Below are positions 53,059 to 64,000 of a DNA stretch of 64,000 nucleotides, in pieces. A program made the position numbers and the translations under genes. The notes under the pieces were generated by a model. The model ran no database searches, was not told the origin of the DNA, and saw only the letters and a program-made list of their open reading frames with translations. Source of the stretch: Eubacteriales bacterium (GTDB lineage Bacteria > Bacillota > Clostridia > Oscillospirales > CAG-272); the NCBI GenBank assembly GCA_045128735.1, contig JBGVRT010000052.1, forward strand, positions 88,137 through 152,136, given 5' to 3'. Each line of letters starts with the position of its first letter. Positions within the stretch are counted from its first letter, which is position 1.

Positions 53059-53826
53059 ATGATTTATCAGACACATAATTCGGTGGGGCAAAACTATTTT
53101 GAGTGCATCCGTTATACAAATTTTAGTTTTGTTCCGCATATGCACCGTCACCCCGAGCTTATATGTGTGCGTGAGGGAACCATCGCCGTTGTTACAAACG
53201 GAAAACGTGAGATTATTTCTGCTGGTGAATACGGTTGGATTCCTTCAAATTCAATACATTCCTGTGAAAACGTGGATAATTGCGTGGTTGACGTGTGCAT
53301 TTATTCCGAGGATTTTGTGCCGACCTTTTCAAAGGAAATACGTAAGAAATTTCCCGACAGATCGAAGTTTAATTGCCGTTATTCGGTGTCGAAATTTATT
53401 AACGACGAGCTTTTTGTTTCGGACAAAGAGGTTGATTTCTTTACGCGAAAAGCGGCGCTTTATGCTGTGGCGGGAGAGATATTTGAGCAAATAGAGTTTC
53501 AGGATATTTCCGCCAAAAACGAAGCTCTTATCGACGTAATAATCCGATACGTTGCAGAAAATTATACCGAAAATATAACGTTGAAGGGAATTGCGGAGGA
53601 GCTTGGATACGATGAACGCTATCTTTCGCGTTGCTTCCATAATACCGTTCCGATGCACTTTTCGGCGTACGTTAATCTTTTCAGAGTTGACCACGCTATC
53701 GCTTTGCTCCAAAACACCGATTTGCTTGTCTCAGAGGTGTCAATGGAAAGCGGCTTCCAAAGTATAAGAAGCTTTAACCGCGTTTTTCAGGAGATAACAG
53801 GCAAAAGCCCAAAGGATTTTGTTTGA
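53059..53826 (+). CDS. AraC-family regulator
   Basis: PHMH..PE cupin; ESGFQSIRSFNRVF...TG.SP; divergent from the GH51 gene. Confidence 0.9.
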   Translation: MIYQTHNSVGQNYFECIRYTNFSFVPHMHRHPELICVREGTIAVVTNGKREIISAGEYGWIPSNSIHSCENVDNCVVDVCIYSEDFVPTFSKEIRKKFPDRSKFNCRYSVSKFINDELFVSDKEVDFFTRKAALYAVAGEIFEQIEFQDISAKNEALIDVIIRYVAENYTENITLKGIAEELGYDERYLSRCFHNTVPMHFSAYVNLFRVDHAIALLQNTDLLVSEVSMESGFQSIRSFNRVFQEITGKSPKDFV

Positions 53827-53885
53827 TTTGATCATCTTGAAAGCAACACTGTCAAAAAAAGGCGATAAAAACTTTTATAAATCTA

Positions 53886-53914
53886 TTGCAAAAAACAGGG
53901 AAATGGTGTATAAT
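53886..53914 (+). promoter_or_regulatory. Sigma-A promoter of ssrA
   Basis: TTGCAA-17 bp-TATAAT. Confidence 0.75.
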
Positions 53915-53937
53915 ATATAGCGTTATCCATAAATCAC

Positions 53938-54306
53938 GGGGGCGTAAAGGTTTCGACGGGGATTTTGAGATATGATAAGCGAGTAGAGCTGAGTAACTCT
54001 ATAAAGGCTCAAACTTAAAATTAAACGCTAACAATAAAGTAGCAATGGCTGCCTAACGGCAGTGCCGCGGCTTAATATAGCCGCCCGTTCCCTCGGAGAG
54101 TATCGCGGCTTCGAGCTGAGCGTCATTTGAGCGGTGAACGTGAACCGAGAGTTTGCTTTTGTATCGGTCACGCACTAAAAGGCTACCCAAAGCAGAAGTT
54201 TGTCCGTTGACGTCAGCCAAGGGGAATTCTAAATAACGGAATACACTCGTAGAAAGTTGTATTAACGGGTTTTCGGACAGGGGTTCGACTCCCCTCGCCT
54301 CCACCA
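53938..54306 (+). ncRNA. ssrA: tmRNA
   Basis: 5' GGGGGCGTAAAGGTTTCGACGGG; 3' GGTTCGACTCCCCTCGCCTCCACCA; G:U in acceptor stem; tag reading frame 54027-54056 = ANNKVAMAA*. Confidence 0.96.
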
Positions 54307-54406
54307 TCGGAGGAGTAAACGAACACCCAGCGCTGTATGTTTGCAGCACCATGTTCGTCCTGCTCCTGCCTCTGTCTGCTGTGAGGTAAAAGACAGCAGA
54401 AAAAAG

Positions 54407-54449
54407 AAAAAGCCCACCCGACGGCCTGAGAGGCCGCTGGGTGGGTTTT
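54407..54449 (-). terminator. Terminator of the phage late operon (probably bidirectional)
   Basis: AAAAGCCCACCC..CGGCCT-gag-AGGCCG..GGGTGGGTTTT with A and T runs on both sides. Confidence 0.8.
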
Positions 54450-54465
54450 GTTTGTGTGTAGGTAT

Positions 54466-54858
54466 TTACTCGGCTTTCGCCTCTCCGACGCTCTGTGCGT
54501 CATTCTGAGCAGCCTGCGCGGGCTTTTCTGCGTATGCTTCGAGCAGCGCGGGGTTCTTGGCCCATGCTTCCTTAGCTTTTGCCAGCGCTTCCTCTACCCA
54601 GCGCACGAGTGTGTCGTTGCTGATGAAGGTCTTGATGATGCCGGGCAGTTTGGGATAAATCAGATCAATGACTGCTGCCAGCTTCAGAGAGCCGGTACCG
54701 GCGCCGAGCTGCGTCTCTGCGTCTGTGACCAGCGCGTAGAGCATGTGCATGACGACCGACTTGTTGCCCTTGAAGACGGCGAACACAACGGCCACCACGG
54801 CCGCAACGATCAAAAGAATGAAGTCCCAGTTTGCGATGATAAAGTTCAACACGTTCAT
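54466..54858 (-). CDS. Putative phage holin (N-terminal TM)
   Basis: NWDFILLIVAAVVAVVFAVF, ALVTDAE..LGAGTG.LKLA.V; GGAGG RBS; last gene of the lysis module. Confidence 0.65.
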   Translation of the reverse strand: MNVLNFIIANWDFILLIVAAVVAVVFAVFKGNKSVVMHMLYALVTDAETQLGAGTGSLKLAAVIDLIYPKLPGIIKTFISNDTLVRWVEEALAKAKEAWAKNPALLEAYAEKPAQAAQNDAQSVGEAKAE

Positions 54859-54875
54859 CGTGTTATACCTCCGTA

Positions 54876-55034
54876 TTATGATTTTTTGTTGTGCTCCTCG
54901 CACGGGAACGGGCAGCGGGCGCAGTCCGAACGATCGCAGCCGGCCCCGTCTCCGTTCACGAGGGCGATGATCCAGATGATGGTGCAGCCGAGCCCCAGAA
55001 GGAGCCCGGCCACGTTGAGAACATTTTCCACCAT
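54876..55034 (-). CDS. Small membrane protein with Cys-rich tail (52 aa)
   Basis: One TM then [13 protein letters not shown]; fills the gap between lysin and holin. Confidence 0.6.
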
Positions 55035-55039
55035 GGCGA

Positions 55040-56662
55040 TCACGCCTTGGTGAAGGTTCCGGCGTCTACCCAGCCGTAGACCGTGGCGCCGGCGCCGGAG
55101 ACTCTGACGAGGTGGTAGGGGTGCTTGGACTTGCCGAGCTGGTAGATCTGCGTGATCTTGGCCTTGCCGCCTTTGCAGGCCTTCGGGCTGGAGCTGTTCG
55201 CGCTGGTGTAGTGTGTGCTGCAGGAGTAGTTGACGACGTCGCCCACCTTCGGCGTCCACGTCTGAGGCGTCTGAGGCGTCTCTGTGGCCGCTTCCATGAT
55301 GTCCGCCACGTCTACCCAGCCGTAGACGGTCGAGCCGCCTCCGCTGACGTTTACGAGGTGGTAGGGGTGCTTGCTTTTGCCGAGCTGGTAGATCGCGGTG
55401 ATCTTAGCCTTACCGGGCTTGCAGGCGGGCCCGCTCGCTGCGTTCGCGTTCGCGTAGTGCTTGCTGCCGGTGAAGGTGACGATGTCGCCGACCTTCAGCG
55501 CGGATCCTGAAGGAGCTGCGGGCTTTTCCTGCTCTTTTGGTTCTTCCTTCGGAGCTTCAGCCGCTCCGGAGTATGTAACATAGGGCAGCTTGCCGTGCTT
55601 CGTCCAGTTTCGGCGCTGGTACCCGCTCTTGGAGCAGTTGCAGGCTGTGATCTGCACGCAGTTCTTCCACGCAGGCGTGCACTCGACTGCGAGCCCGTCC
55701 CCCACGTAGATGCCGATGTGGCCCTTCATCCACACCGCCTCGCCGATCTCGATGCTGGAGAAGTCTGTGCTGACCTCTTTGCAGACCGTGATCATGGAGT
55801 CGGCGCCGATGTCCGGCACGTTGTTCGCCTTGTAGCTCGCGCCTCCGTAGATCTTGGAGGCGTCGCCACTCCAGCCCCAGAGCAGTCCCTTGATCAGGCA
55901 GACGCAGTCGAAGCCGAAGGTGTCAGCTGAAGCTGCGGAGATCATGGCCTGCCGATCGGCCGCCTTGTTGTAGCTGTGGTTTGTGCGGTATCTTACCTTG
56001 TTCGTCTCGTTCATGGGCGCACCGAAGCAGCCCATGACGTAGAGCGTCTTGTGGTTTTTTGCGGCGTCGATCGCTCTCTTTGCGAGCTCTGCCGCGGTCG
56101 TGATCTTTCCGGTCACTGTTCCCACGTCCTTTCCGGTGTTGGTTTTTGCGGCAAATTGATCGAAGAACTGCTGCCCGTATGCCGCGCGGGCCTGCTGGAC
56201 GCTCGTCCCTTGGTTCGCCGGGCGCTCGTACTTCAGGAGCACCGCGTCCGACGCCTCTCGGATCGTCTTGGCGTTCTTCAGAGTGGTCAGGACGGAGCCG
56301 TAGCTCTCGCTGAGTTCCTTCCAGAGGAAGCAGAGCTGCATCTCCAGATCTCCGATCGAGGCCTTGCAGCTTCTCGCGTAGTTCAGGAGCTTCTCCTTCC
56401 TTGACCAGTACGTCCACTGGGCGAGGCCGTAGCCGGCGGAGTCCTTCACGAAGTTCGTGTAGGTGCCGGCATCCACGGCGGCCGTGTAGCTGGCGTCAGT
56501 GTGTCCCAGTTTCCGCTCGTAGGTCTGTTGCAGGTTCATGGGGTTCAGGGCGCTCTCGGCTTTCAGGTTTCCCATCAGGCCGGCAGCGCCGCACTCGCTG
56601 AGGCCTTTGGAGATCAGGAAGTTCCAGATCTTCTCGGCCGTCGTGTTTCCTTTAAGGCTCAT
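55040..56662 (-). CDS. Multidomain endolysin: phage-tail-lysozyme-like domain, NlpC/P60-like domain, two cell-wall-binding repeats
   Basis: [13 protein letters not shown]...[16 protein letters not shown]...[13 protein letters not shown]; two KVGD...HPYHLV...VYGWVD repeats; ATG 56662 after AGGAGG. Confidence 0.88.
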
Positions 56663-57023
56663 GTGAGTCCTCCTTTCCGGCTTCGTTCTGAAGCCGCTCC
56701 TCGCGATCCTGATCCTCGCGGATCCACTTGCGGTCTTGCCGGCGTTCCTTGGTGGTCTTGATCCACGCCATGGCGCCGCACTCGCCACCGAGGGCAGCGA
56801 ACACGCAGGTGCAGAGGGTGTCCGGGATCATCCCGGTCTCTCTGAAGATCTTGATCATTTCCAGTGTGAAGGCGACCAGCGCGACGGCTATGATCACGAG
56901 GATCACGTCCATCGTGCGGATCTTCTTCGGGGTTTTGTTTGCTTTGGCCTTCGCTCGGCGACGCTTCAGACGGCGCCACCAGAGCTTCAGCCTGCTGCTT
57001 TTTCTTGCAGCCATTTGGATCAC
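56652..57023 (-). CDS. Phage membrane protein, possible holin
   Basis: Basic N-terminus, two hydrophobic segments, charged C-terminus; overlaps the lysin start. Confidence 0.6.
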   Translation of the reverse strand: MIQMAARKSSRLKLWWRRLKRRRAKAKANKTPKKIRTMDVILVIIAVALVAFTLEMIKIFRETGMIPDTLCTCVFAALGGECGAMAWIKTTKERRQDRKWIREDQDREERLQNEAGKEDSHEP

Positions 57024-57421
57024 CTCGTTTTGAGCGGCAGGTGGTTCACTTCCTCCATGAGGGTGTCGAGGTCGCCGTTTCCGCAGAGTCCGAAGTGGTA
57101 CGTGTGGTGCATATTGTTGAGGATCCGGCGATCGTCAAAGTCGATCTCCTTGTCCGCGATGTATGCCTGCCCCAGAAAACGGATGCGGTCGTAGAGCACG
57201 AACTTCATGGCCTCCTTCAGGACTTCTGTCGTGTCCTCGATGGCTCCGAGACGCTCCTCGGTTTTGAGGGCTGCCTGACGTTCAGCTTCTTCCTGCTTCC
57301 TCTCGACTTTGTCCTCCTTGTCCGCTTGTCGTTTTCGCTTCCATGCGAAGCGATCGGCCAGCACTTTGATCAGTGCGGCCAGCGCTCCGCCGGAGACGAA
57401 GCCTATAAGTAGTTCGATCAT
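57020..57421 (-). CDS. Phage lysis-module protein with N-terminal TM and coiled coil
   Basis: MIELLIGFVSGGALAALI; LYDRI...Y...LCGNG motif; ATGA-coupled to the RT stop. Confidence 0.7.
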   Translation of the reverse strand: MIELLIGFVSGGALAALIKVLADRFAWKRKRQADKEDKVERKQEEAERQAALKTEERLGAIEDTTEVLKEAMKFVLYDRIRFLGQAYIADKEIDFDDRRILNNMHHTYHFGLCGNGDLDTLMEEVNHLPLKTR

Positions 57422-58512
57422 GTGTCTGTGTCCTTCCTTTGGAATGTGATGTTGCGCTCGATCCACCGGCGCAGTCCGTAGCTGTTGCAGTGGCTCATCA
57501 TGCCGTAGTAGCTCGCCATGGTGTTCTGCACCGCCTCCAGATCTATGAGGCCTTCGGCGTACTGCTTCTCTATGAAGCGGATCCGGGCCTTCATTTTCTT
57601 CAGCGGCTTCCGGTTCATCTTCCTCCAGTTCACGTGGATCTGAAGGCCGACGAAGCTGATGCCGTTCCGGACTTTGTTGATGGTGGTCTTGGCATTGAGT
57701 TCGAGATGCAGCTGCTCGTTCAGGAACTCCTCGATCCTTTCCTTGCAGCTGTGCAGCTCCTTCTTGTCTGGCATCAGGAGCACCATGTCGTCCATGTAGC
57801 GGATGTAGTGGTGCACCTTCAGCGTGTGCTTGACGAACTGATCCAGCTCGTTCAGGCAGACGTTCGCCAGCAGTTGGCTCGTGAGGTTTCCGATCGGCAT
57901 CCCGACCTCGAAAAGCCGCTCAGAGGGCGGCACTTCGTCGGCGTTCTTTCCCGGTGGAAGCCCGAAGGGCGTGTGGTCGCAGTTGATGATCGTCTCCATA
58001 AGCCAGAGAAGCCCGTCCTCTCCCTTGAACTTCCGGCGCAGGATGTTCATGAGAACCTCGTGATCCACGCGGTAGAAGTATTTGGAGACGTCGAGCTTCA
58101 GATAATACCACTCGTCCGGTGTCCGGTCGACCTTCTGCATCCAGTATTGCAGCCGATCAGCTGCGCGGGTGGTGCCTTTGCCGACGCGGCAGCCGTATGA
58201 GTGAAATATAAATTGATTGTCGAACAGTGGGTTCAGCTGCAAATAGATCGCCCACTGAACGACGCGGTCGCGGAAGCTCAGCGCCATGATCAGGCGCTTT
58301 TTCGGCTCGTAGACGTAGAACTCACGATAGCGCCCGACGGAGTAGGTGCGCCAGATCAGCTCGTTCTGGATGCTGATCAGGTTCTCCTCCAGATGGGCGG
58401 TGAAGTTCGCGACGTCCTGCTTGAACCACTTCTCCCGGCCGGCTTCGTGGTATGCGTTCAGGAGGTTCTCCCACGAGTAGATCCTCTCGTAAATTGTCAG
58501 TTTTTCGTCCAT
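57418..58512 (-). CDS. DGR reverse transcriptase
   Basis: 364 aa; EPKKRLI, FRDRVVQ, SYGCR.GKG, KLDVSKYF, GMPIGNLTSQLLAN, YIRYMDD; no maturase or endonuclease domain; next to TR and avd. Confidence 0.96.
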   Translation of the reverse strand: MDEKLTIYERIYSWENLLNAYHEAGREKWFKQDVANFTAHLEENLISIQNELIWRTYSVGRYREFYVYEPKKRLIMALSFRDRVVQWAIYLQLNPLFDNQFIFHSYGCRVGKGTTRAADRLQYWMQKVDRTPDEWYYLKLDVSKYFYRVDHEVLMNILRRKFKGEDGLLWLMETIINCDHTPFGLPPGKNADEVPPSERLFEVGMPIGNLTSQLLANVCLNELDQFVKHTLKVHHYIRYMDDMVLLMPDKKELHSCKERIEEFLNEQLHLELNAKTTINKVRNGISFVGLQIHVNWRKMNRKPLKKMKARIRFIEKQYAEGLIDLEAVQNTMASYYGMMSHCNSYGLRRWIERNITFQRKDTDT

Positions 58513-58776
58513 GCTGTTCGTCCTCTTTTCTTATGTGGCACGCGTGTGACAGTCCTTCAGCTCCGGAGCTGCTGCCGGTTGCCAGCTCGGCAGCCTCTCC
58601 GGACTTCTGCCCCGTGTGGGGCGCGTATAGCCTGCGCGGTTTTGCCGCGGTGTTTCGAGGTTTTTGACCACGTCGCCCGCGGCGCCTTTCTTTGGTGCGG
58701 TGCACCGGGAGATGCACCCCTTTGACCTCTGCGTTGCTCTCACCCTTGGGCTTTGAGTCTCTAACAGTCGAGGCCG

Positions 58777-58892
58777 AAGCGGGACGGAAGCCGATGTTCG
58801 TGTTGTAGTTCGAGCGCGGATTGTTGCCATTCGCATAGAACACCCCGGCGTTGCCACCGTTGTTCCAGTTGCCCCCGCGATACACGAGGCGC
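58777..58892 (-). repeat. DGR template repeat (TR)
   Basis: 116-bp ungapped match to 59366-59481; 25 coding-strand adenines, including 10 AAY codons; all 16 mismatches at TR adenines. Confidence 0.97.
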
Positions 58893-58921
58893 GGTTCTTT
58901 TGCGGCACATCCCCCATGATC

Positions 58922-59281
58922 TCAGTCTTTAGACGTGGCCCCTCCGGGGTTCATCCATCGACCGAGCAGACGCCCGATCTCGTTCAGCTCCGCCGACCAG
59001 TCCCGGTGAAGGCCGGGGCTGATGATCTTCGCCTCTGGTGCGACAGCTTGGTCGATCAGAGCACGAAGGACGTCGAGCTCAGCATCGAGCTCGAACTGGT
59101 AGTGCTGGCGCTTTGACGTCCGCGATTTATTTGCGAGAATTGCCAGCCGCAGCATCCGGATCTCGGCCGCCTGAATTTCCGCGCCGAGGGTGTACTTCTC
59201 AGGCTTTCGGAAGTTCGCGATGCGGCCGTAGCTTTTCAGAGTCATGCGGCTGATCTTCTGCTGAAGTATAAACTCTGCCAT
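58922..59281 (-). CDS. avd: DGR accessory variability determinant (four-helix bundle)
   Basis: 119 aa; F.K.EKYTLGAEI, ELD.ELD.LR, EIGRLLGRW; lies between target and TR. Confidence 0.9.
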   Translation of the reverse strand: MAEFILQQKISRMTLKSYGRIANFRKPEKYTLGAEIQAAEIRMLRLAILANKSRTSKRQHYQFELDAELDVLRALIDQAVAPEAKIISPGLHRDWSAELNEIGRLLGRWMNPGGATSKD

Positions 59282-59297
59282 ATTGCCTCCAGATTAT

Positions 59298-59323
59298 AGG
59301 CGCCCGGTGTGAGCCGGACGCCT
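59298..59323 (-). other. GC-rich hairpin downstream of VR (putative DGR target-recognition element)
   Basis: Minus strand AGGCGTCCGG-ctcaca-CCGGGCGCCT, 25 nt after the target stop codon. Confidence 0.7.
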
Positions 59324-59348
59324 TTGTCAGATTACCAGATTACAGAGA

Positions 59349-60485
59349 TCAGATCCCCGGAATAAAAGCGGGACGGAAGCCGATGTACGAGCTGTAGCCC
59401 GAGCGCGGATAGCCGCCAGCCGCATAGAACACCCCGGCGGCGCCACCGTAGTGCCAGCCGCCCCCGCGATACACGAGGCGCTCTCCGATGTTTCTCATGT
59501 AGGCATAGTCGCCACCATAAGAGACGCTGGTGCCGTCAGGCATCAGAGCGAGCGCCTTCAGGCGATCGGGAACGAGGACGCCTTCCGCAGCCTTCAGGCT
59601 CGCGAAGCTCATGGAGCCGTATGGTGCGTCAGCTGTCTGCTGGTAGGTCAGTTTGGTGTTCAGGCCGAACGGGATGCCAGCGCTCGCAGTTCCGGGATCC
59701 TGAGTGTAGTCCCATTTCAGAGATCCGGCAGTTCCGGGCTCCACGAGGGTGCCGTCCTGAAGGATCGCTTTCCAGAGCGTGGACTCAGGGTTCTGCTCGT
59801 ACTGCATCGCGGCGTCGTTGTCGGCGAAGATCTGAAGCTCGCCGTCGACCGTGCGATAGCCGCCCTGCCACTCGTAGACGTTGCCGTTCAGGTCACAGAT
59901 GCCGTCCGGCTGCCAGTTGTCGTTCCACGTTGCAGGGCCGGAGCCGGTGAGAGTGCGGCAGATCGTCTCGCCGTCGAAGTAGGAGCCGATGCCCTTCTCG
60001 TACTTATAGGAGCCGTCCTTGCCGTAGTTGTTGTTGCCGTGGGGCATGGTGCCGTTCTTACGGCTCAGCAGCGCGATCCATGCGTATTCTGCGATGGTCG
60101 GCAGGTGGAAGCCGGCGCCGTTCGCCTCGCACCAGATCTTGGCGTTGTTGAAGTTGACGTAGTTGCTGGTCGCGCTTCCGCGGTCAGCTGTTGCCACCGA
60201 GCTCGCTGCGGGATCCTGAAGAGGAAGGGAGAGAGCTCTGCCCTTGTAAACAGTTGCCAGATACTTGCCCATGTAGAAGGCAGGGATCTCGACGCCGTTC
60301 ACCTTGAAGGCGTAGTGGGTAGTGTCAGGGCCGCCGTCGATGACGTCGGAGATCGCGCCCTTGCCGCGTCTGACGTAGATCGAAGGCATGCCCAGATCGT
60401 TATAGATGGCGACGTTCGTGCCACCGCTCAGAAGTCGAACGGCAGCGTCGAAGTCGCTGACGGGTTTCTTGCTGATTTCTGCCAT
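59349..60485 (-). CDS. DGR target protein, C-type-lectin/FGE-sulfatase-like fold, probable receptor-binding protein (Mtd-like)
   Basis: FYMGKY, GFHLPTIAEY, GICDLNGNVYEW, RGG.W...G.F...PRS.....GFRP; VR at the extreme C-terminus; last gene of the tail module. Confidence 0.9.
   Translation of the reverse strand: MAEISKKPVSDFDAAVRLLSGGTNVAIYNDLGMPSIYVRRGKGAISDVIDGGPDTTHYAFKVNGVEIPAFYMGKYLATVYKGRALSLPLQDPAASSVATADRGSATSNYVNFNNAKIWCEANGAGFHLPTIAEYAWIALLSRKNGTMPHGNNNYGKDGSYKYEKGIGSYFDGETICRTLTGSGPATWNDNWQPDGICDLNGNVYEWQGGYRTVDGELQIFADNDAAMQYEQNPESTLWKAILQDGTLVEPGTAGSLKWDYTQDPGTASAGIPFGLNTKLTYQQTADAPYGSMSFASLKAAEGVLVPDRLKALALMPDGTSVSYGGDYAYMRNIGERLVYRGGGWHYGGAAGVFYAAGGYPRSGYSSYIGFRPAFIPGI
59366..59481 (-). 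repeat. DGR variable repeat (VR)
   Basis: Encodes RLVYRGGGWHYGGAAGVFYAAGGYPRSGYSSYIGFRPA versus TR RLVYRGGNWNNGGNAGVFYANGNNPRSNYNTNIGFRPA. Confidence 0.97.
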
Positions 60486-60487
60486 GG

Positions 60488-60790
60488 TTACACCTCCGCG
60501 TCAACGTCGATCAGGGCCCAGAGCACGAGCGTCACATTCTCCATGCTGAAGGCGACTGCATCGCCGTCCTCGCCGTACTGTCTGGCGGGGATGATGATGT
60601 TCGCGACGAAGTATTTGGAAGGGCCGGCGATCAGGATGTGCTCGTCGTCGGTGCAGACGTCGATCTGAACCTCCTCGTCTCTCTCGTACTTGGCGAGGTT
60701 GAGGGTGATCTCGTCGTCGCCGAAGGTGATCTTGTTGCCGGTTACTTCATAGGCGACCTTGGTGCCTTTGTTCTTCTCGATTACAGTCAT
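60488..60790 (-). CDS. Hypothetical phage tail-region protein
   Basis: 100 aa, AAAGGAG RBS, operonic. Confidence 0.75.
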   Translation of the reverse strand: MTVIEKNKGTKVAYEVTGNKITFGDDEITLNLAKYERDEEVQIDVCTDDEHILIAGPSKYFVANIIIPARQYGEDGDAVAFSMENVTLVLWALIDVDAEV

Positions 60791-60948
60791 TTCTGCATTC
60801 TCCTTTCGATCTCTGCCGTTTTACGGCTGATTTCCTGAGCATACTCGCGCTGCTCTTTGGTTGCGGTCTGAGGGTTCACGCCGAAGGATCTCATGACCTG
60901 AGCCTCGTGGCGCTTCTGTTCTTCGCTTGTGATCTTTACGTTTGCCAT
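60787..60948 (-). CDS. Small phage protein (53 aa), absent from the ORF track
   Basis: MANVKITSEEQKRHEAQVMRSFGVNPQTATKEQREYAQEISRKTAEIERRMQK; TGATG and ATGA overlaps with both neighbours. Confidence 0.75.
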   Translation of the reverse strand: MANVKITSEEQKRHEAQVMRSFGVNPQTATKEQREYAQEISRKTAEIERRMQK

Positions 60949-61358
60949 CAGAACATACCCCCTGATACGTGGAAGCGGACGACGATGCTCGTCGCGTTTC
61001 CGTTGTATTTGACCTTGAAGCCGTTGGCCTGCTTTGTCAGGGGAATGATGTCCCCGGCAGAGCCGCCGGTCACGCTCTTGACCTCTGCGACGACGTTGTA
61101 GGTCGTCATGTTTCTCGTCTTGGACGCGGGAAGGTCGACGGAGTTCTCCGCGCCGGAGCCGGTCAGAGTGGCCTCGACGACGATCGTCTCAGCGTTCAGG
61201 GCCATGTCGTTGCAATACCTGCGGTGCGCGGCGTTCATAGCTGCCAGAGCTGCGGCTTCCATGGTGCCGGCTTCGAGGTTGTTGAAGTTGGCAGCGTTCA
61301 TGTCGGTGCCCTCTTGGATGCCCTCGACGTGATCCTGCCAGATTTGTCGCTTGTACAT
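60948..61358 (-). CDS. Hypothetical tail-fibre-associated protein
   Basis: 136 aa; WQDHV..IQEGT.MNAANFNNLE.G N-terminus, beta-rich C-terminus; GGAGG RBS. Confidence 0.65.
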   Translation of the reverse strand: MYKRQIWQDHVEGIQEGTDMNAANFNNLEAGTMEAAALAAMNAAHRRYCNDMALNAETIVVEATLTGSGAENSVDLPASKTRNMTTYNVVAEVKSVTGGSAGDIIPLTKQANGFKVKYNGNATSIVVRFHVSGGMF

Positions 61359-61361
61359 GCC

Positions 61362-61673
61362 TTATACCTCCTGCTCAGTGATAGGCAGATCGAGCTTGAT
61401 CAGGACGCCCTGACCTGCTGCCTTTGTGATATTGTCGGACTTTTGAGCCGCCACCTCGCCGTCGATGTCGATGACTCTCAGGCTGGTGATGGTGCAGGCG
61501 GAAGCAGTGAGATCCGTGAACACTGCATGGATGACGATCTTCTCGCCCTCCAGTGCCTTCTTCTGGATCGTTCCCGTGTACCACGTGGAGCCGACCAGCG
61601 CCTCGACCTTGGCGATGTTCTTCATCCACCAGACGCGGCGCTTTTGCAGAAAATTGGATGTGTAAAATGCCAT
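61362..61673 (-). CDS. Hypothetical phage baseplate/tail protein
   Basis: 103 aa, AAGGAGG RBS, operonic. Confidence 0.7.
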   Translation of the reverse strand: MAFYTSNFLQKRRVWWMKNIAKVEALVGSTWYTGTIQKKALEGEKIVIHAVFTDLTASACTITSLRVIDIDGEVAAQKSDNITKAAGQGVLIKLDLPITEQEV

Positions 61674-61691
61674 TGTGCTGTGCCTCCTTCT

Positions 61692-62612
61692 TTAGTTGCC
61701 GCACTTCGATGTGCCGCATTTTGCGAGAATGACGCGGCCGTTCCCGGCTGCGTTCGTCACGACCGCCATGGCAGCTGTGCGAACAGCTCCCACGGTTGCC
61801 GTCTTGGGGATCACTCCGGTCGTCTCGGTGCCGGTCTCGGTTGACTCGTACCCGCTCGCCGCGAGCTCTGCTGCAGCTGTGGCAGCGTCGCCCGTGATGA
61901 TCTTGCCGACCACGGCGATGTGCGGGGTGGTTCCGGTTACCTCGGTTCCGGCCTCGATAGACTCGAAGCTGGCAGCAGCGGAGTCCAGCCCGGCGACAGC
62001 TCCGTCCTCGGTCAGGATCTTGCCGATCACTGCGAGGCGCGGGATGGTGCCGCACTTCTTCGGAGTGAAGAAGAAGGCGGTGTCGGTATTGCTGACGACC
62101 ATCCGGCTGCCGTAGGTGTCGGAGAAGTAGACGCCGTCCAGACGGGAGCGCACTGACATGGCGACCTTCGCGATCGCCTTGAACTCTTGCAGGATCGCAT
62201 CGGTCACGTGTCTGTGGCTGGTATAGACGGAGAAGTGGAAGGGCTTCGGGTTGACGTAGCCCTCCTCGTGCCACTCCTCGACGAAGCCGGGCGAGATATA
62301 CGCGGAGATCAGCTCCTCGACCGCCCACTTCGTTCCGCGTCGGCTGTGCACCAGATCCGAGATCTTGATGACCGCCCGCTTGTTCTCCAGAGGAAGGCCG
62401 GAGCTGTACCAGTCGATGTCGAGCTCATAGGCCAGCTCGTCGAGCTGAGCGTCGTCGAGCTCGTCGATCTGATCCCAGACTCGGACGGTCTTGACCTTCC
62501 GGCCCGGATCCCTGATCAGCTTGTTGACGGCAGCGGCCAGTCCTTTCACCGCTTCGTCATCGCGCATAAACTCCGGGACGAGTTTGAGGACGTCGGCCGT
62601 CGATAGACGCAT
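61692..62612 (-). CDS. Phage tail protein I (P2 gpI-like) with C-terminal repeats
   Basis: IDELDDAQLDELAYELDIDWY, KRAVIK...H.RRGTKWAVE, EEW; follows baseplate J. Confidence 0.85.
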   Translation of the reverse strand: MRLSTADVLKLVPEFMRDDEAVKGLAAAVNKLIRDPGRKVKTVRVWDQIDELDDAQLDELAYELDIDWYSSGLPLENKRAVIKISDLVHSRRGTKWAVEELISAYISPGFVEEWHEEGYVNPKPFHFSVYTSHRHVTDAILQEFKAIAKVAMSVRSRLDGVYFSDTYGSRMVVSNTDTAFFFTPKKCGTIPRLAVIGKILTEDGAVAGLDSAAASFESIEAGTEVTGTTPHIAVVGKIITGDAATAAAELAASGYESTETGTETTGVIPKTATVGAVRTAAMAVVTNAAGNGRVILAKCGTSKCGN

Positions 62613-63952
62613 TAGCCGCTGACCTCGTGCCGGATGGTTTTCTTGCCGCTGAAGGCTGCGATCGTCGTGTCGTTGAGCTCAGTGAACTCCGGACTGGTGA
62701 TCACGACGCGCGTCGCTCCGACGGCAGCGTCCCCGGTGGGTGCGAGAATGAGAGCTCGCAGCTTGTCGGGGTTGATGTGACGGCCGAGGACTCCGGCCTG
62801 CCATGCGATGAACTGATCGACGGCTCCGCCTTCTCCTTCGACTGTCTGGATGCAGGCGCCCTCTGTGGCCGCGGTGGTGTAGTATGTCAGCTCGATGTCA
62901 TACTCGTGCACCCTCGGCGCCTCGGCCACGACTTTGTCGGTCATTGGCCGCACTTCTGAAGCGCTGCATGCTGCGAGCACCTTGGCGAGGATGGTCTCGT
63001 CAGGCAGCTCGCCGTTCTCGCAGATCGGGACGATCTTGACGACGCCCTCGTTCGTCTTGTCGATCTCGATCTTCAGCTCTCCGGCTCCTACCAGAGCTCC
63101 ATCGGCCAGCAGCTCGATCGTCAGAAGGTCGTCCTCGTAGGTTGCCTTGTAGTCGGTACCAGCCGTCGCCGGCGTGGTTCCGTCCGAGAGGTAAACGACG
63201 AGAGTCTCAGCGATCAGATCGCTGCCTCCCTTGTAGGCCTTGCTGCCGTTGACTGCCAGAGTCCGGGCGATCGTTTCCTGCTCGCTCTTGACTGTGACGT
63301 CTGCGATGGAGGAGTCGGCGCTCATAGCCCAGTAGCGGTAGCCGTTGACCGGCCCGGCTGTGGAGAGCTTTGAGGGTGCGACTCTGATGCGTTCGCGGAG
63401 GCTGTCGTCATCTTCTTCGTCAGCGCCGCCGGCTGTGACCTCGGTGTTGCTGACTGTGTCGACGTAGGCGATCAGATCGACGAGAGTGTTCACGGATCCG
63501 ACCGCGATGTCATTGAACTGAGTGCCGCCGCCTTCGCTGACCGCATCGACGTCCACGTAGAGATGGCCGGCTTCGATGACGGCCGTCCTCGTGGTTGCGA
63601 AGTAGCGCGTGTTGTCGCTTGTCGCTCTGGTTCCTTCCGGGATGATGACGTTCTCCGTGATCGCGCTGTTCAGAGTGAAGCGCAGCACGGTCGCCGCTTC
63701 CGTCGGAGCCAGTCTTTCGACGCCCACGCGCTCGCCCAGTGCGTCGAGAACTTCGCCGCGAGCATATCGCAGCATCTTCTGACGCGCTGCGTCGTTCATC
63801 GCGTTATACATAGCGACGAACAGCGGCACCAGAGCCTCGCCGAAGATCCTGCGCTCGTCGCCCGGATAGAGTGGCTCGGAGACGTATGACTCCAGCGATG
63901 TGATGACTTCCTCGAAAATGAGGTCGGCATCGGTAGTTATAAACTCATTCAT
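62612..63952 (-). CDS. Baseplate J/gp47-family protein
   Basis: LYPGDERR, LRYARGEVLDALG, GGADEEDDDSLRERI, STAGP..GY.YWA.SA, VRPMTDKV. Confidence 0.92.
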   Translation of the reverse strand: MNEFITTDADLIFEEVITSLESYVSEPLYPGDERRIFGEALVPLFVAMYNAMNDAARQKMLRYARGEVLDALGERVGVERLAPTEAATVLRFTLNSAITENVIIPEGTRATSDNTRYFATTRTAVIEAGHLYVDVDAVSEGGGTQFNDIAVGSVNTLVDLIAYVDTVSNTEVTAGGADEEDDDSLRERIRVAPSKLSTAGPVNGYRYWAMSADSSIADVTVKSEQETIARTLAVNGSKAYKGGSDLIAETLVVYLSDGTTPATAGTDYKATYEDDLLTIELLADGALVGAGELKIEIDKTNEGVVKIVPICENGELPDETILAKVLAACSASEVRPMTDKVVAEAPRVHEYDIELTYYTTAATEGACIQTVEGEGGAVDQFIAWQAGVLGRHINPDKLRALILAPTGDAAVGATRVVITSPEFTELNDTTIAAFSGKKTIRHEVSG

Positions 63953-64000
63953 GCGTCGGCCTCCTTGATGGTGTTAATTTTTGCAGTGATGGCGAAGTGA
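63949..64000 (-). CDS. 3' end of the upstream baseplate gene (truncated by window end)
   Basis: ...HFAITAKINTIKEADA*; stop overlaps the baseplate J ATG. Confidence 0.55.
   Translation of the reverse strand, partial: HFAITAKINTIKEADA

Follow-up and report, generated by a model that had tools for sequence, protein, structure and literature searches.

Which genes does the retroelement at this locus rewrite, and by what signal are they found? The element is a diversity-generating retroelement (DGR) on the minus strand of a 64,000-nucleotide stretch (positions 88,137 to 152,136) of contig JBGVRT010000052.1 from an Eubacteriales bacterium, assembly GCA_045128735.1. This whole stretch is hereafter the window; positions follow its own numbering, and those prefixed C52 are positions on the contig. 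How the cDNA of a DGR finds its target is described as incompletely understood (PMC12875486). As a DGR the element is ordinary, and its interest lies in a lead on the targeting signal and in the role of a remote target among the early genes. Taking the account as a whole, we consider it quite probable that this is a DGR of the type of phage BPP-1 in a Lagaffevirus-like prophage, one template serving both a lectin-fold target in the tail module and an early-gene paralog that likely binds an intracellular target.

The locus follows the minus-strand order target, avd, template repeat (TR), reverse transcriptase (RT). The TR (58777-58892, minus strand) contains 25 adenines spread across 15 codons. 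It aligns without gaps over 116 nucleotides with the first variable repeat (VR1, 59366..59481, minus strand), inside the target 1 gene, and each of the 16 mismatches falls at a TR coding-strand adenine (9 A>G, 4 A>T, 3 A>C); the probability that 16 of 16 land on the 25 adenines by chance is 1.2e-13. VR1 departs from the TR in each of the ten Asn codons and in one Thr codon, and none of the 15 adenine-containing codons of the TR can be turned into a stop by an adenine change. The original prediction had given this order, these repeats with their adenine-only mismatches and altered codons, and intact open reading frames (ORFs) for RT and Avd; the coordinates and the alignment were reproduced exactly, as were the codon changes, and the ORFs encode 364 (RT), 119 (Avd) and 378 (target) amino acids. 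Its anatomy of the element was right, but a second, remote target outside the window had been missed. A scan of the whole 2.6-Mb genome that disregarded adenine positions returned exactly three sites, each agreeing at 91/91 non-adenine positions: the TR, VR1 and a second variable repeat, VR2. The TR/VR1 locus is a genuine BPP-1-type DGR.

The RT (57418..58512, minus strand, 364 aa) was assigned from its PDB match, its place in a tree and its conserved residues. Its best PDB match was Brt of BPP-1 (E 9e-45), against 6e-20 or weaker for group II intron RTs; it is 32% identical to the BPP-1 RT and 71% identical to that of phage FP_Lagaffe (NC_047911). Its profile scores stayed under the family cut-offs of group II (131 versus 300) and retron St85 (54 versus 235) RTs. 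In a tree of 25 rows, from which L175 and L148 are absent for want of an ORF and whose rows include no annotated retron RT, it joined BPP-1, ANMV-1 and Lagaffe in a clade of 11 rows (support 99/99), from which four annotated group II intron RTs were separate. This phylogenetic placement had been proposed as a check on the DGR call, which held on the repeat signature, Avd, the match to Brt, the tree and the RNA duplexes described below. Residues R74, I181, Q187, D138, D215 and D216 of Brt are all conserved, and R74 and I181 have been named as promoters of adenine mutagenesis (PMC7826257). The avd gene (58922..59281, minus strand, 119 aa; phrog_3206) passes the Pfam bAvd cut-off (PF22296; 69.5 bits, cut-off 40) and falls just short of that of NCBIfam DivGenRetAVD (77.5 versus 80); a phmmer search of the PDB with Avd gave no match.

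VR2 (G000:C52:181657-181772, minus strand) lies outside the window, inside a gene (target 2, C52:181598-182575, minus strand) for a 325-aa paralog of target 1 (39% identity by tblastn). All 13 of its mismatches to the TR are at TR adenines. VR2 and the TR are 34.6 kb apart in the prophage and 10.8 kb apart across the joined ends. Target 2 is preceded by a cro-like gene and followed by exonuclease, Gam, Erf, SSB and replication genes, and a 12/12 sigma-70 promoter upstream of it faces away from a repressor-like gene. In a quick tree built from the sequence outside the VR, target 2 grouped in a separate clade with the remote target of Lagaffe. Among 17 GTDB candidates for such a remote arrangement, the remote VR matched the TR of its own phage in 14.

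The host prophage measures 45,660 bp, from the tmRNA gene's 3' end to an 11-bp repeat inside a serine integrase gene, and its fraction of G plus C is 0.60, against 0.44-0.45 outside. One copy of the 11-bp att core is at 54296..54306 (plus strand), at the tmRNA 3' end, and the second at C52:188092-188102, within the integrase gene. The gene content is that of a lambda-like head with a contractile tail. The prophage is syntenic with FP_Lagaffe and, over long aligned blocks, about 63-78% identical to it in DNA, and it is on this synteny and block identity that we call it Lagaffevirus-like. Run X2 contained a 44,560-nt contig in the excised, joined-ends arrangement.

Target 1 (59349..60485, minus strand) encodes a 378-aa protein with an FGE-type C-type-lectin fold. 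It comes after the baseplate genes as the last gene of the tail module. It matches the Thermus aquaticus protein TaqVP (5VF4) with a phmmer E of 3e-47, and its predicted model (pLDDT 94.7) aligns to 5VF4 with a Foldseek TM of 0.87; for the model of target 2 the value is 0.83, again to this lectin fold. Target 1 likely encodes a receptor-binding protein, and from fold and position its role in host recognition, which the original prediction had also proposed, is a plausible inference. Directly upstream is a gene for a 100-aa protein (60488..60790, minus strand; phrog_8734), with a homolog in the same place in 23 of 32 adjacent-target loci and in 0 of 28 remote-target loci. Its family counts 395 representatives at E<=0.001, and atlas and profile searches gave it no named family; it is possibly an adaptor for TaqVP-type targets.

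By what signal, then, would one template find two genes so far apart? Downstream of VR1 is a GC-rich hairpin or cruciform (59299..59322, minus strand) with a stem of 9-10 bp, one G-T pair and a 6-nt loop, and between it and VR1 are four TCTG units at 8-nt spacing (59327..59355, minus strand), which span the stop codon of target 1 and form a candidate targeting element. VR2 is likewise followed by four TCTG units, in frame, but downstream of it no short-loop stem exceeds 5 bp, and the one longer stem, of 8 bp, has a loop of 18 nt and is not conserved. In BPP-1 the hairpin after the VR raises homing efficiency more than 1000-fold, with residual activity in its absence (PMC3240598); because it is an efficiency element of this kind, the missing VR2 hairpin does not affect membership among the DGRs.

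The same asymmetry runs through related phages. Counting perfect stems of at least 7 bp, and excluding two rows with a mis-picked TR and 12 unclassified loci, viral contigs and references have the hairpin at 23 of 26 adjacent targets versus 0 of 22 exonuclease-linked remote targets (18/20 versus 0/12 after similar rows are collapsed). In GTDB genomes, with two mis-picked TR rows dropped, it is found at 36 of 43 adjacent targets versus 0 of 14 remote targets that match their own TR. Arrays of TCTG (three to four copies, 7-9-nt period), counted from two units upward, accompany 23/26 adjacent and 22/22 remote targets in the first set and 38/43 and 14/14 in GTDB, and follow none of 28 TRs. Three or more CTG units occur after 43 of 47 distinct VR1s versus 2 of 47 spacers, and a pattern composed post hoc from the two sites of this phage has no other occurrence in the 2.6-Mb genome. 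The adjacent and remote rows are related, such that a small number of independent events may lie behind the contrast. Within remote targets the array is read in frame, and its Ser codons are TCT in 39 of 39 cases versus 29 of 245 in gene bodies; read from this codon choice, the array is fixed there at synonymous sites.

That remote targets never carry a hairpin was rejected as a universal rule: the remote target of phage Saumur has a 7-bp stem, seen by eye. Further stems were seen in L264 and L257 (6 bp each) and, among the 12 unclassified loci excluded from the counts, in L104, L122 and L124 (6-10 bp). Saumur has ACTG arrays at both targets and keeps the hairpin at the remote one, and the loss of the hairpin is therefore lineage-specific. 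We found no description of the array or of the hairpin asymmetry in the search results and paper texts covered, all open-access; the sequences may appear in figures and supplements such as Shimadzu Fig. S2 and Guo Fig. 5. The (T/A)CTG array is a candidate homing signal. A broader proposal, that in this Bacillota DGR clade the array is a hairpin-independent target-site signal by which one template rewrites a remote gene within its coding sequence, the remote protein being an intracellular hypervariable binder of early infection, we put forward only tentatively, as a possibility with the odds somewhat against it. The family offers a natural comparison of two targets of one template, one with a hairpin and one without, and with an array common to both, whose conservation falls in non-coding DNA at one of the sites and on synonymous positions at the second.

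The RNA of the element can be laid out by analogy with the BPP-1 model (10.1101/2023.10.23.563531). The spacer RNA (58513..58776, minus strand) is predicted to hold a template arm (58770-58776) and a primer arm (58723-58729), which would form the template:primer duplex, with a priming adenine predicted among 58721-58723, and the 5' arm of a predicted stop duplex (58904..58915, minus strand) pairs with 58707-58718. In a set of 47 distinct DGRs the two duplexes each show covariation (p=5e-5 for each, kinship among the rows being removed only partly), and cognate pairs beat non-cognate ones. Pairing of the spacer RNA with the DNA downstream of the VR was considered as a targeting mechanism and discarded: in a first test on 16 DGRs the mid-spacer reached p=0.008 and the primer arm p=0.33, and across the 47 DGRs, with composition removed, the result was p=0.11 with a mean z of -0.44. 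RNA run X15 has a contig over avd, TR and spacer, though contigs cannot show transcription. An Rfam search of 53500-64000 gave the tmRNA only.

By analogy with BPP-1, RT and Avd would copy the avd-TR-spacer RNA, cis-primed at a spacer adenine, adenines would be miscopied during cDNA synthesis, and the cDNA would overwrite either VR1 or VR2. Variants of VR1 are expected to alter host binding. Target 2 would work in early infection, in host takeover or counter-defence, and the common (T/A)CTG array would help to choose both target sites; these last two are the weakest steps of the scheme.

The layout with two targets is already published for two close relatives, Shimadzu and Lagaffe. Shimadzu, a prophage of Roseburia intestinalis, is a Lagaffe-like myovirus with a large serine integrase whose gene contains the attachment site; its VR1 is carried by a predicted tail gene that precedes the RT, its VR2 by a distant gene with no assigned function, and both were mutated in 2% of virion reads (10.1101/575076). 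The words 'hairpin' and 'tmRNA' do not occur in the text of that report. FP_Lagaffe has a pair of Mtd/FGE-like targets, of which the remote one immediately precedes a 3'-5' exonuclease gene, with a TCTG array at both and a hairpin at VR1 only; its two Mtd-like targets and their variation have been described (PMC11792537, PMC5883640). It differs in its IS30-type integrase (here a serine integrase at the tmRNA), in its TR, with 69 of 91 non-adenine positions in common, and in a long C-terminal extension on the remote target.

With BPP-1 (mtd-avd-TR-Sp-brt) the element shares gene order, adenine mutagenesis, an AAC-rich TR, the catalytic and mutagenesis residues, the predicted template:primer and stop duplexes, and the hairpin after VR1. 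Unlike BPP-1 it has, besides its divergent RT, two targets, which are TaqVP-like single-domain proteins instead of the trimeric Mtd, a 6-nt hairpin loop in place of a GRNA tetraloop (PMC3240598), and the TCTG array between VR and hairpin. TaqVP (PMC6328139) is the closest solved structure to both targets (34-35% identity), but its variable residues are reported to number nine, compared with 15 in this element. In Quimbyvirus and other gut prophages, too, there is one TR with a tail-module target and a distal, probably non-structural one; Quimbyvirus infects Bacteroidetes and has its distal target on the opposite strand (PMC8008677, PMC12629997), whereas the remote target here shares its strand with target 1, of which it is a full-length paralog, and belongs to a phage family some of whose members can be cultured (Lagaffe, Shimadzu).

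What, then, does target 2 do? We hold it slightly better than an even bet that the protein acts as an intracellular binder in early infection. A PADLOC search gave no match for target 1 or target 2. The alternative that fares best, which we nevertheless hold unlikely, is that both targets are virion receptor-binding proteins and target 2 a second adhesin encoded early, as proposed for Lagaffe by Gulyaeva et al. (PMC11792537). The same TaqVP/Mtd-like fold and the similar spectrum of VR residues in the two targets would fit it, but target 2 lies in a predicted early operon, lacks the N-terminal helix of target 1 and is without the 100-aa partner gene upstream in 28 of 28 remote loci, and in Shimadzu VR1 is reported to be under stronger selection than VR2 (10.1101/575076).

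A little less probable still is a bystander role for VR2, in which target 2, duplicated from target 1 long ago, is rewritten through retained homology and has little function of its own. The Shimadzu isolates each had a different VR2 allele, and one virome had no dominant allele (10.1101/575076); homology alone can support cDNA recombination when a single-strand annealing protein is present (DGRec, 10.1101/2025.03.24.644984), and this phage encodes Erf and SSB near target 2. Against this reading, target 2 is an intact ORF with a ribosome-binding site, is conserved outside the VR (minor fraction 0.013 among the cluster members compared below), and has a counterpart of about 50% identity in the same place in many phages, with its array fixed at synonymous sites.

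Is the element still at work? The original prediction held it to be probably functional, and at the population level this was borne out: because the TR is constant while both VRs vary almost only at TR adenines, the DGR is, judged across assemblies, active in the population. For this lysogen the raw-read run, X24, contributed two reads only over the locus. The runs with the locus come mostly from bovine and other animal gut samples, and run X1, as the possible source of the sequence, was left out of the counts. The near-identical phages L006, L007 and L024 have an identical TR; L006 and L007 share one VR1 haplotype, with 17 differences from that of the window, all at adenine positions, and L024 and L025 have two further haplotypes, with one non-adenine change in L024. 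The TR of L025 (L025:2140-2260) has a 9-nt tandem duplication not found in its VR1, and one-residue indels were also seen in the VRs of P0137 and P0129. For VR2, three independent runs (X3, X5, X8) place 43 of the 44 listed differences at TR adenines, with 8 further difference rows outside those 44.

Protein clusters gave the same picture in the members listed, 15 of 149 for target 1 and 15 of 228 for target 2. In both targets, variation reaches every one of the 15 codon columns that contain adenine, with a mean minor fraction of 0.63 each, against 0.006-0.022 in other VR codons and 0.010-0.018 in the RT, Avd, exonuclease and capsid controls. The scorable VRs are all distinct (14/14 for target 1 and 12/12 for target 2, after exclusion of 1 and 3 rows, respectively, with indels or truncation). 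No difference in saturation was shown between VR1 and VR2 (Asn retained in 22/140 versus 29/120, p=0.12). That the element of this prophage is dormant or dead, its variation being historical, is improbable, slightly more so than the bystander reading. For Lagaffe_CP the limited data of Gulyaeva et al. showed no variation among reads (PMC11792537), but here the structural genes, RT and Avd, together with the RNA duplexes and att cores, are intact, the contigs of run X5 break within VR1, and 9 contigs carry an identical RT and 290 an identical Avd, whereas each target sequence occurs on one.

Some observations weigh against the account given here. The VR2 of run X2 is nearly identical to that of this prophage (6 differences in 601 nt) while its VR1 differs at 5 of 11 listed sites, so that VR2 may turn over more slowly than VR1. 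The target-2-like proteins P0013 and P0021 fall on the target-1 side of the midpoint root of the quick tree. Finally, an approximately unbiased (AU) test in which the RT subclade was forced together with group II intron RTs gave p=0.052, a borderline value by which that grouping is not formally rejected. The reading this last result would favour, a group II intron, retron or defence RT beside repeats that are unrelated duplications, can be dismissed as vanishingly improbable, given that the weak profile matches of the RT to those families lie far under the cut-offs, that the tree unites the RT with BPP-1 and ANMV-1 at 99/99, and that Avd and the adenine-only signature at two sites already exclude it.

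Some further features of the DGR, its host and the prophage deserve mention. Upstream of VR1 in target 1, the interval 59500-59700 shows dense non-DGR divergence from L006 and L007, and similarly in X5: one 100-nt bin holds 37 differences and the flanks are 96-99% identical, a pattern that probably reflects recombination of an insert domain of target 1. A search of 60 host relatives with this RT found no close RT, the best full-length match being 34% identical; two relatives of the host, G017:C20 and G022:C1 (L010, L011), have other RTs, which were placed in the DGR clade. Close relatives of the RT are mostly in genomes titled Clostridia, and the host genome encodes Spo0A, which indirectly fits the Clostridia assignment of the original prediction. 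The RT relatives L182, L188, L200, L204 and L253 come from assemblies titled Bacteroidales, Paludibacteraceae, Nanoarchaeia or Succinivibrionaceae, misbinning being the likely reason.

In the prophage, the position of the att core inside the serine integrase gene (G000:C52:186611-188263) gives the integrated and excised forms different C-termini, about 52 versus 26 codons past the core, and Shimadzu is reported to obtain different C-termini in the same way (10.1101/575076). A tRNA-Leu(CAG) gene lies upstream of the neck and terminase genes (L001:17146-17232, equivalent to G000:C52 about 169145-169231). Between the repressor-like gene and the integrase, a 144-aa gene (L002:14181-14612) encodes a protein with a hydrophobic C-terminal part and unnamed PHROG matches only, which, as a guess, is possibly a superinfection-exclusion protein. 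At the end of the gene for a 582-aa endolysin are two 192-nt repeats (55063-55254 and 55309-55500), 78% identical, which likely correspond to repeated cell-wall-binding domains.

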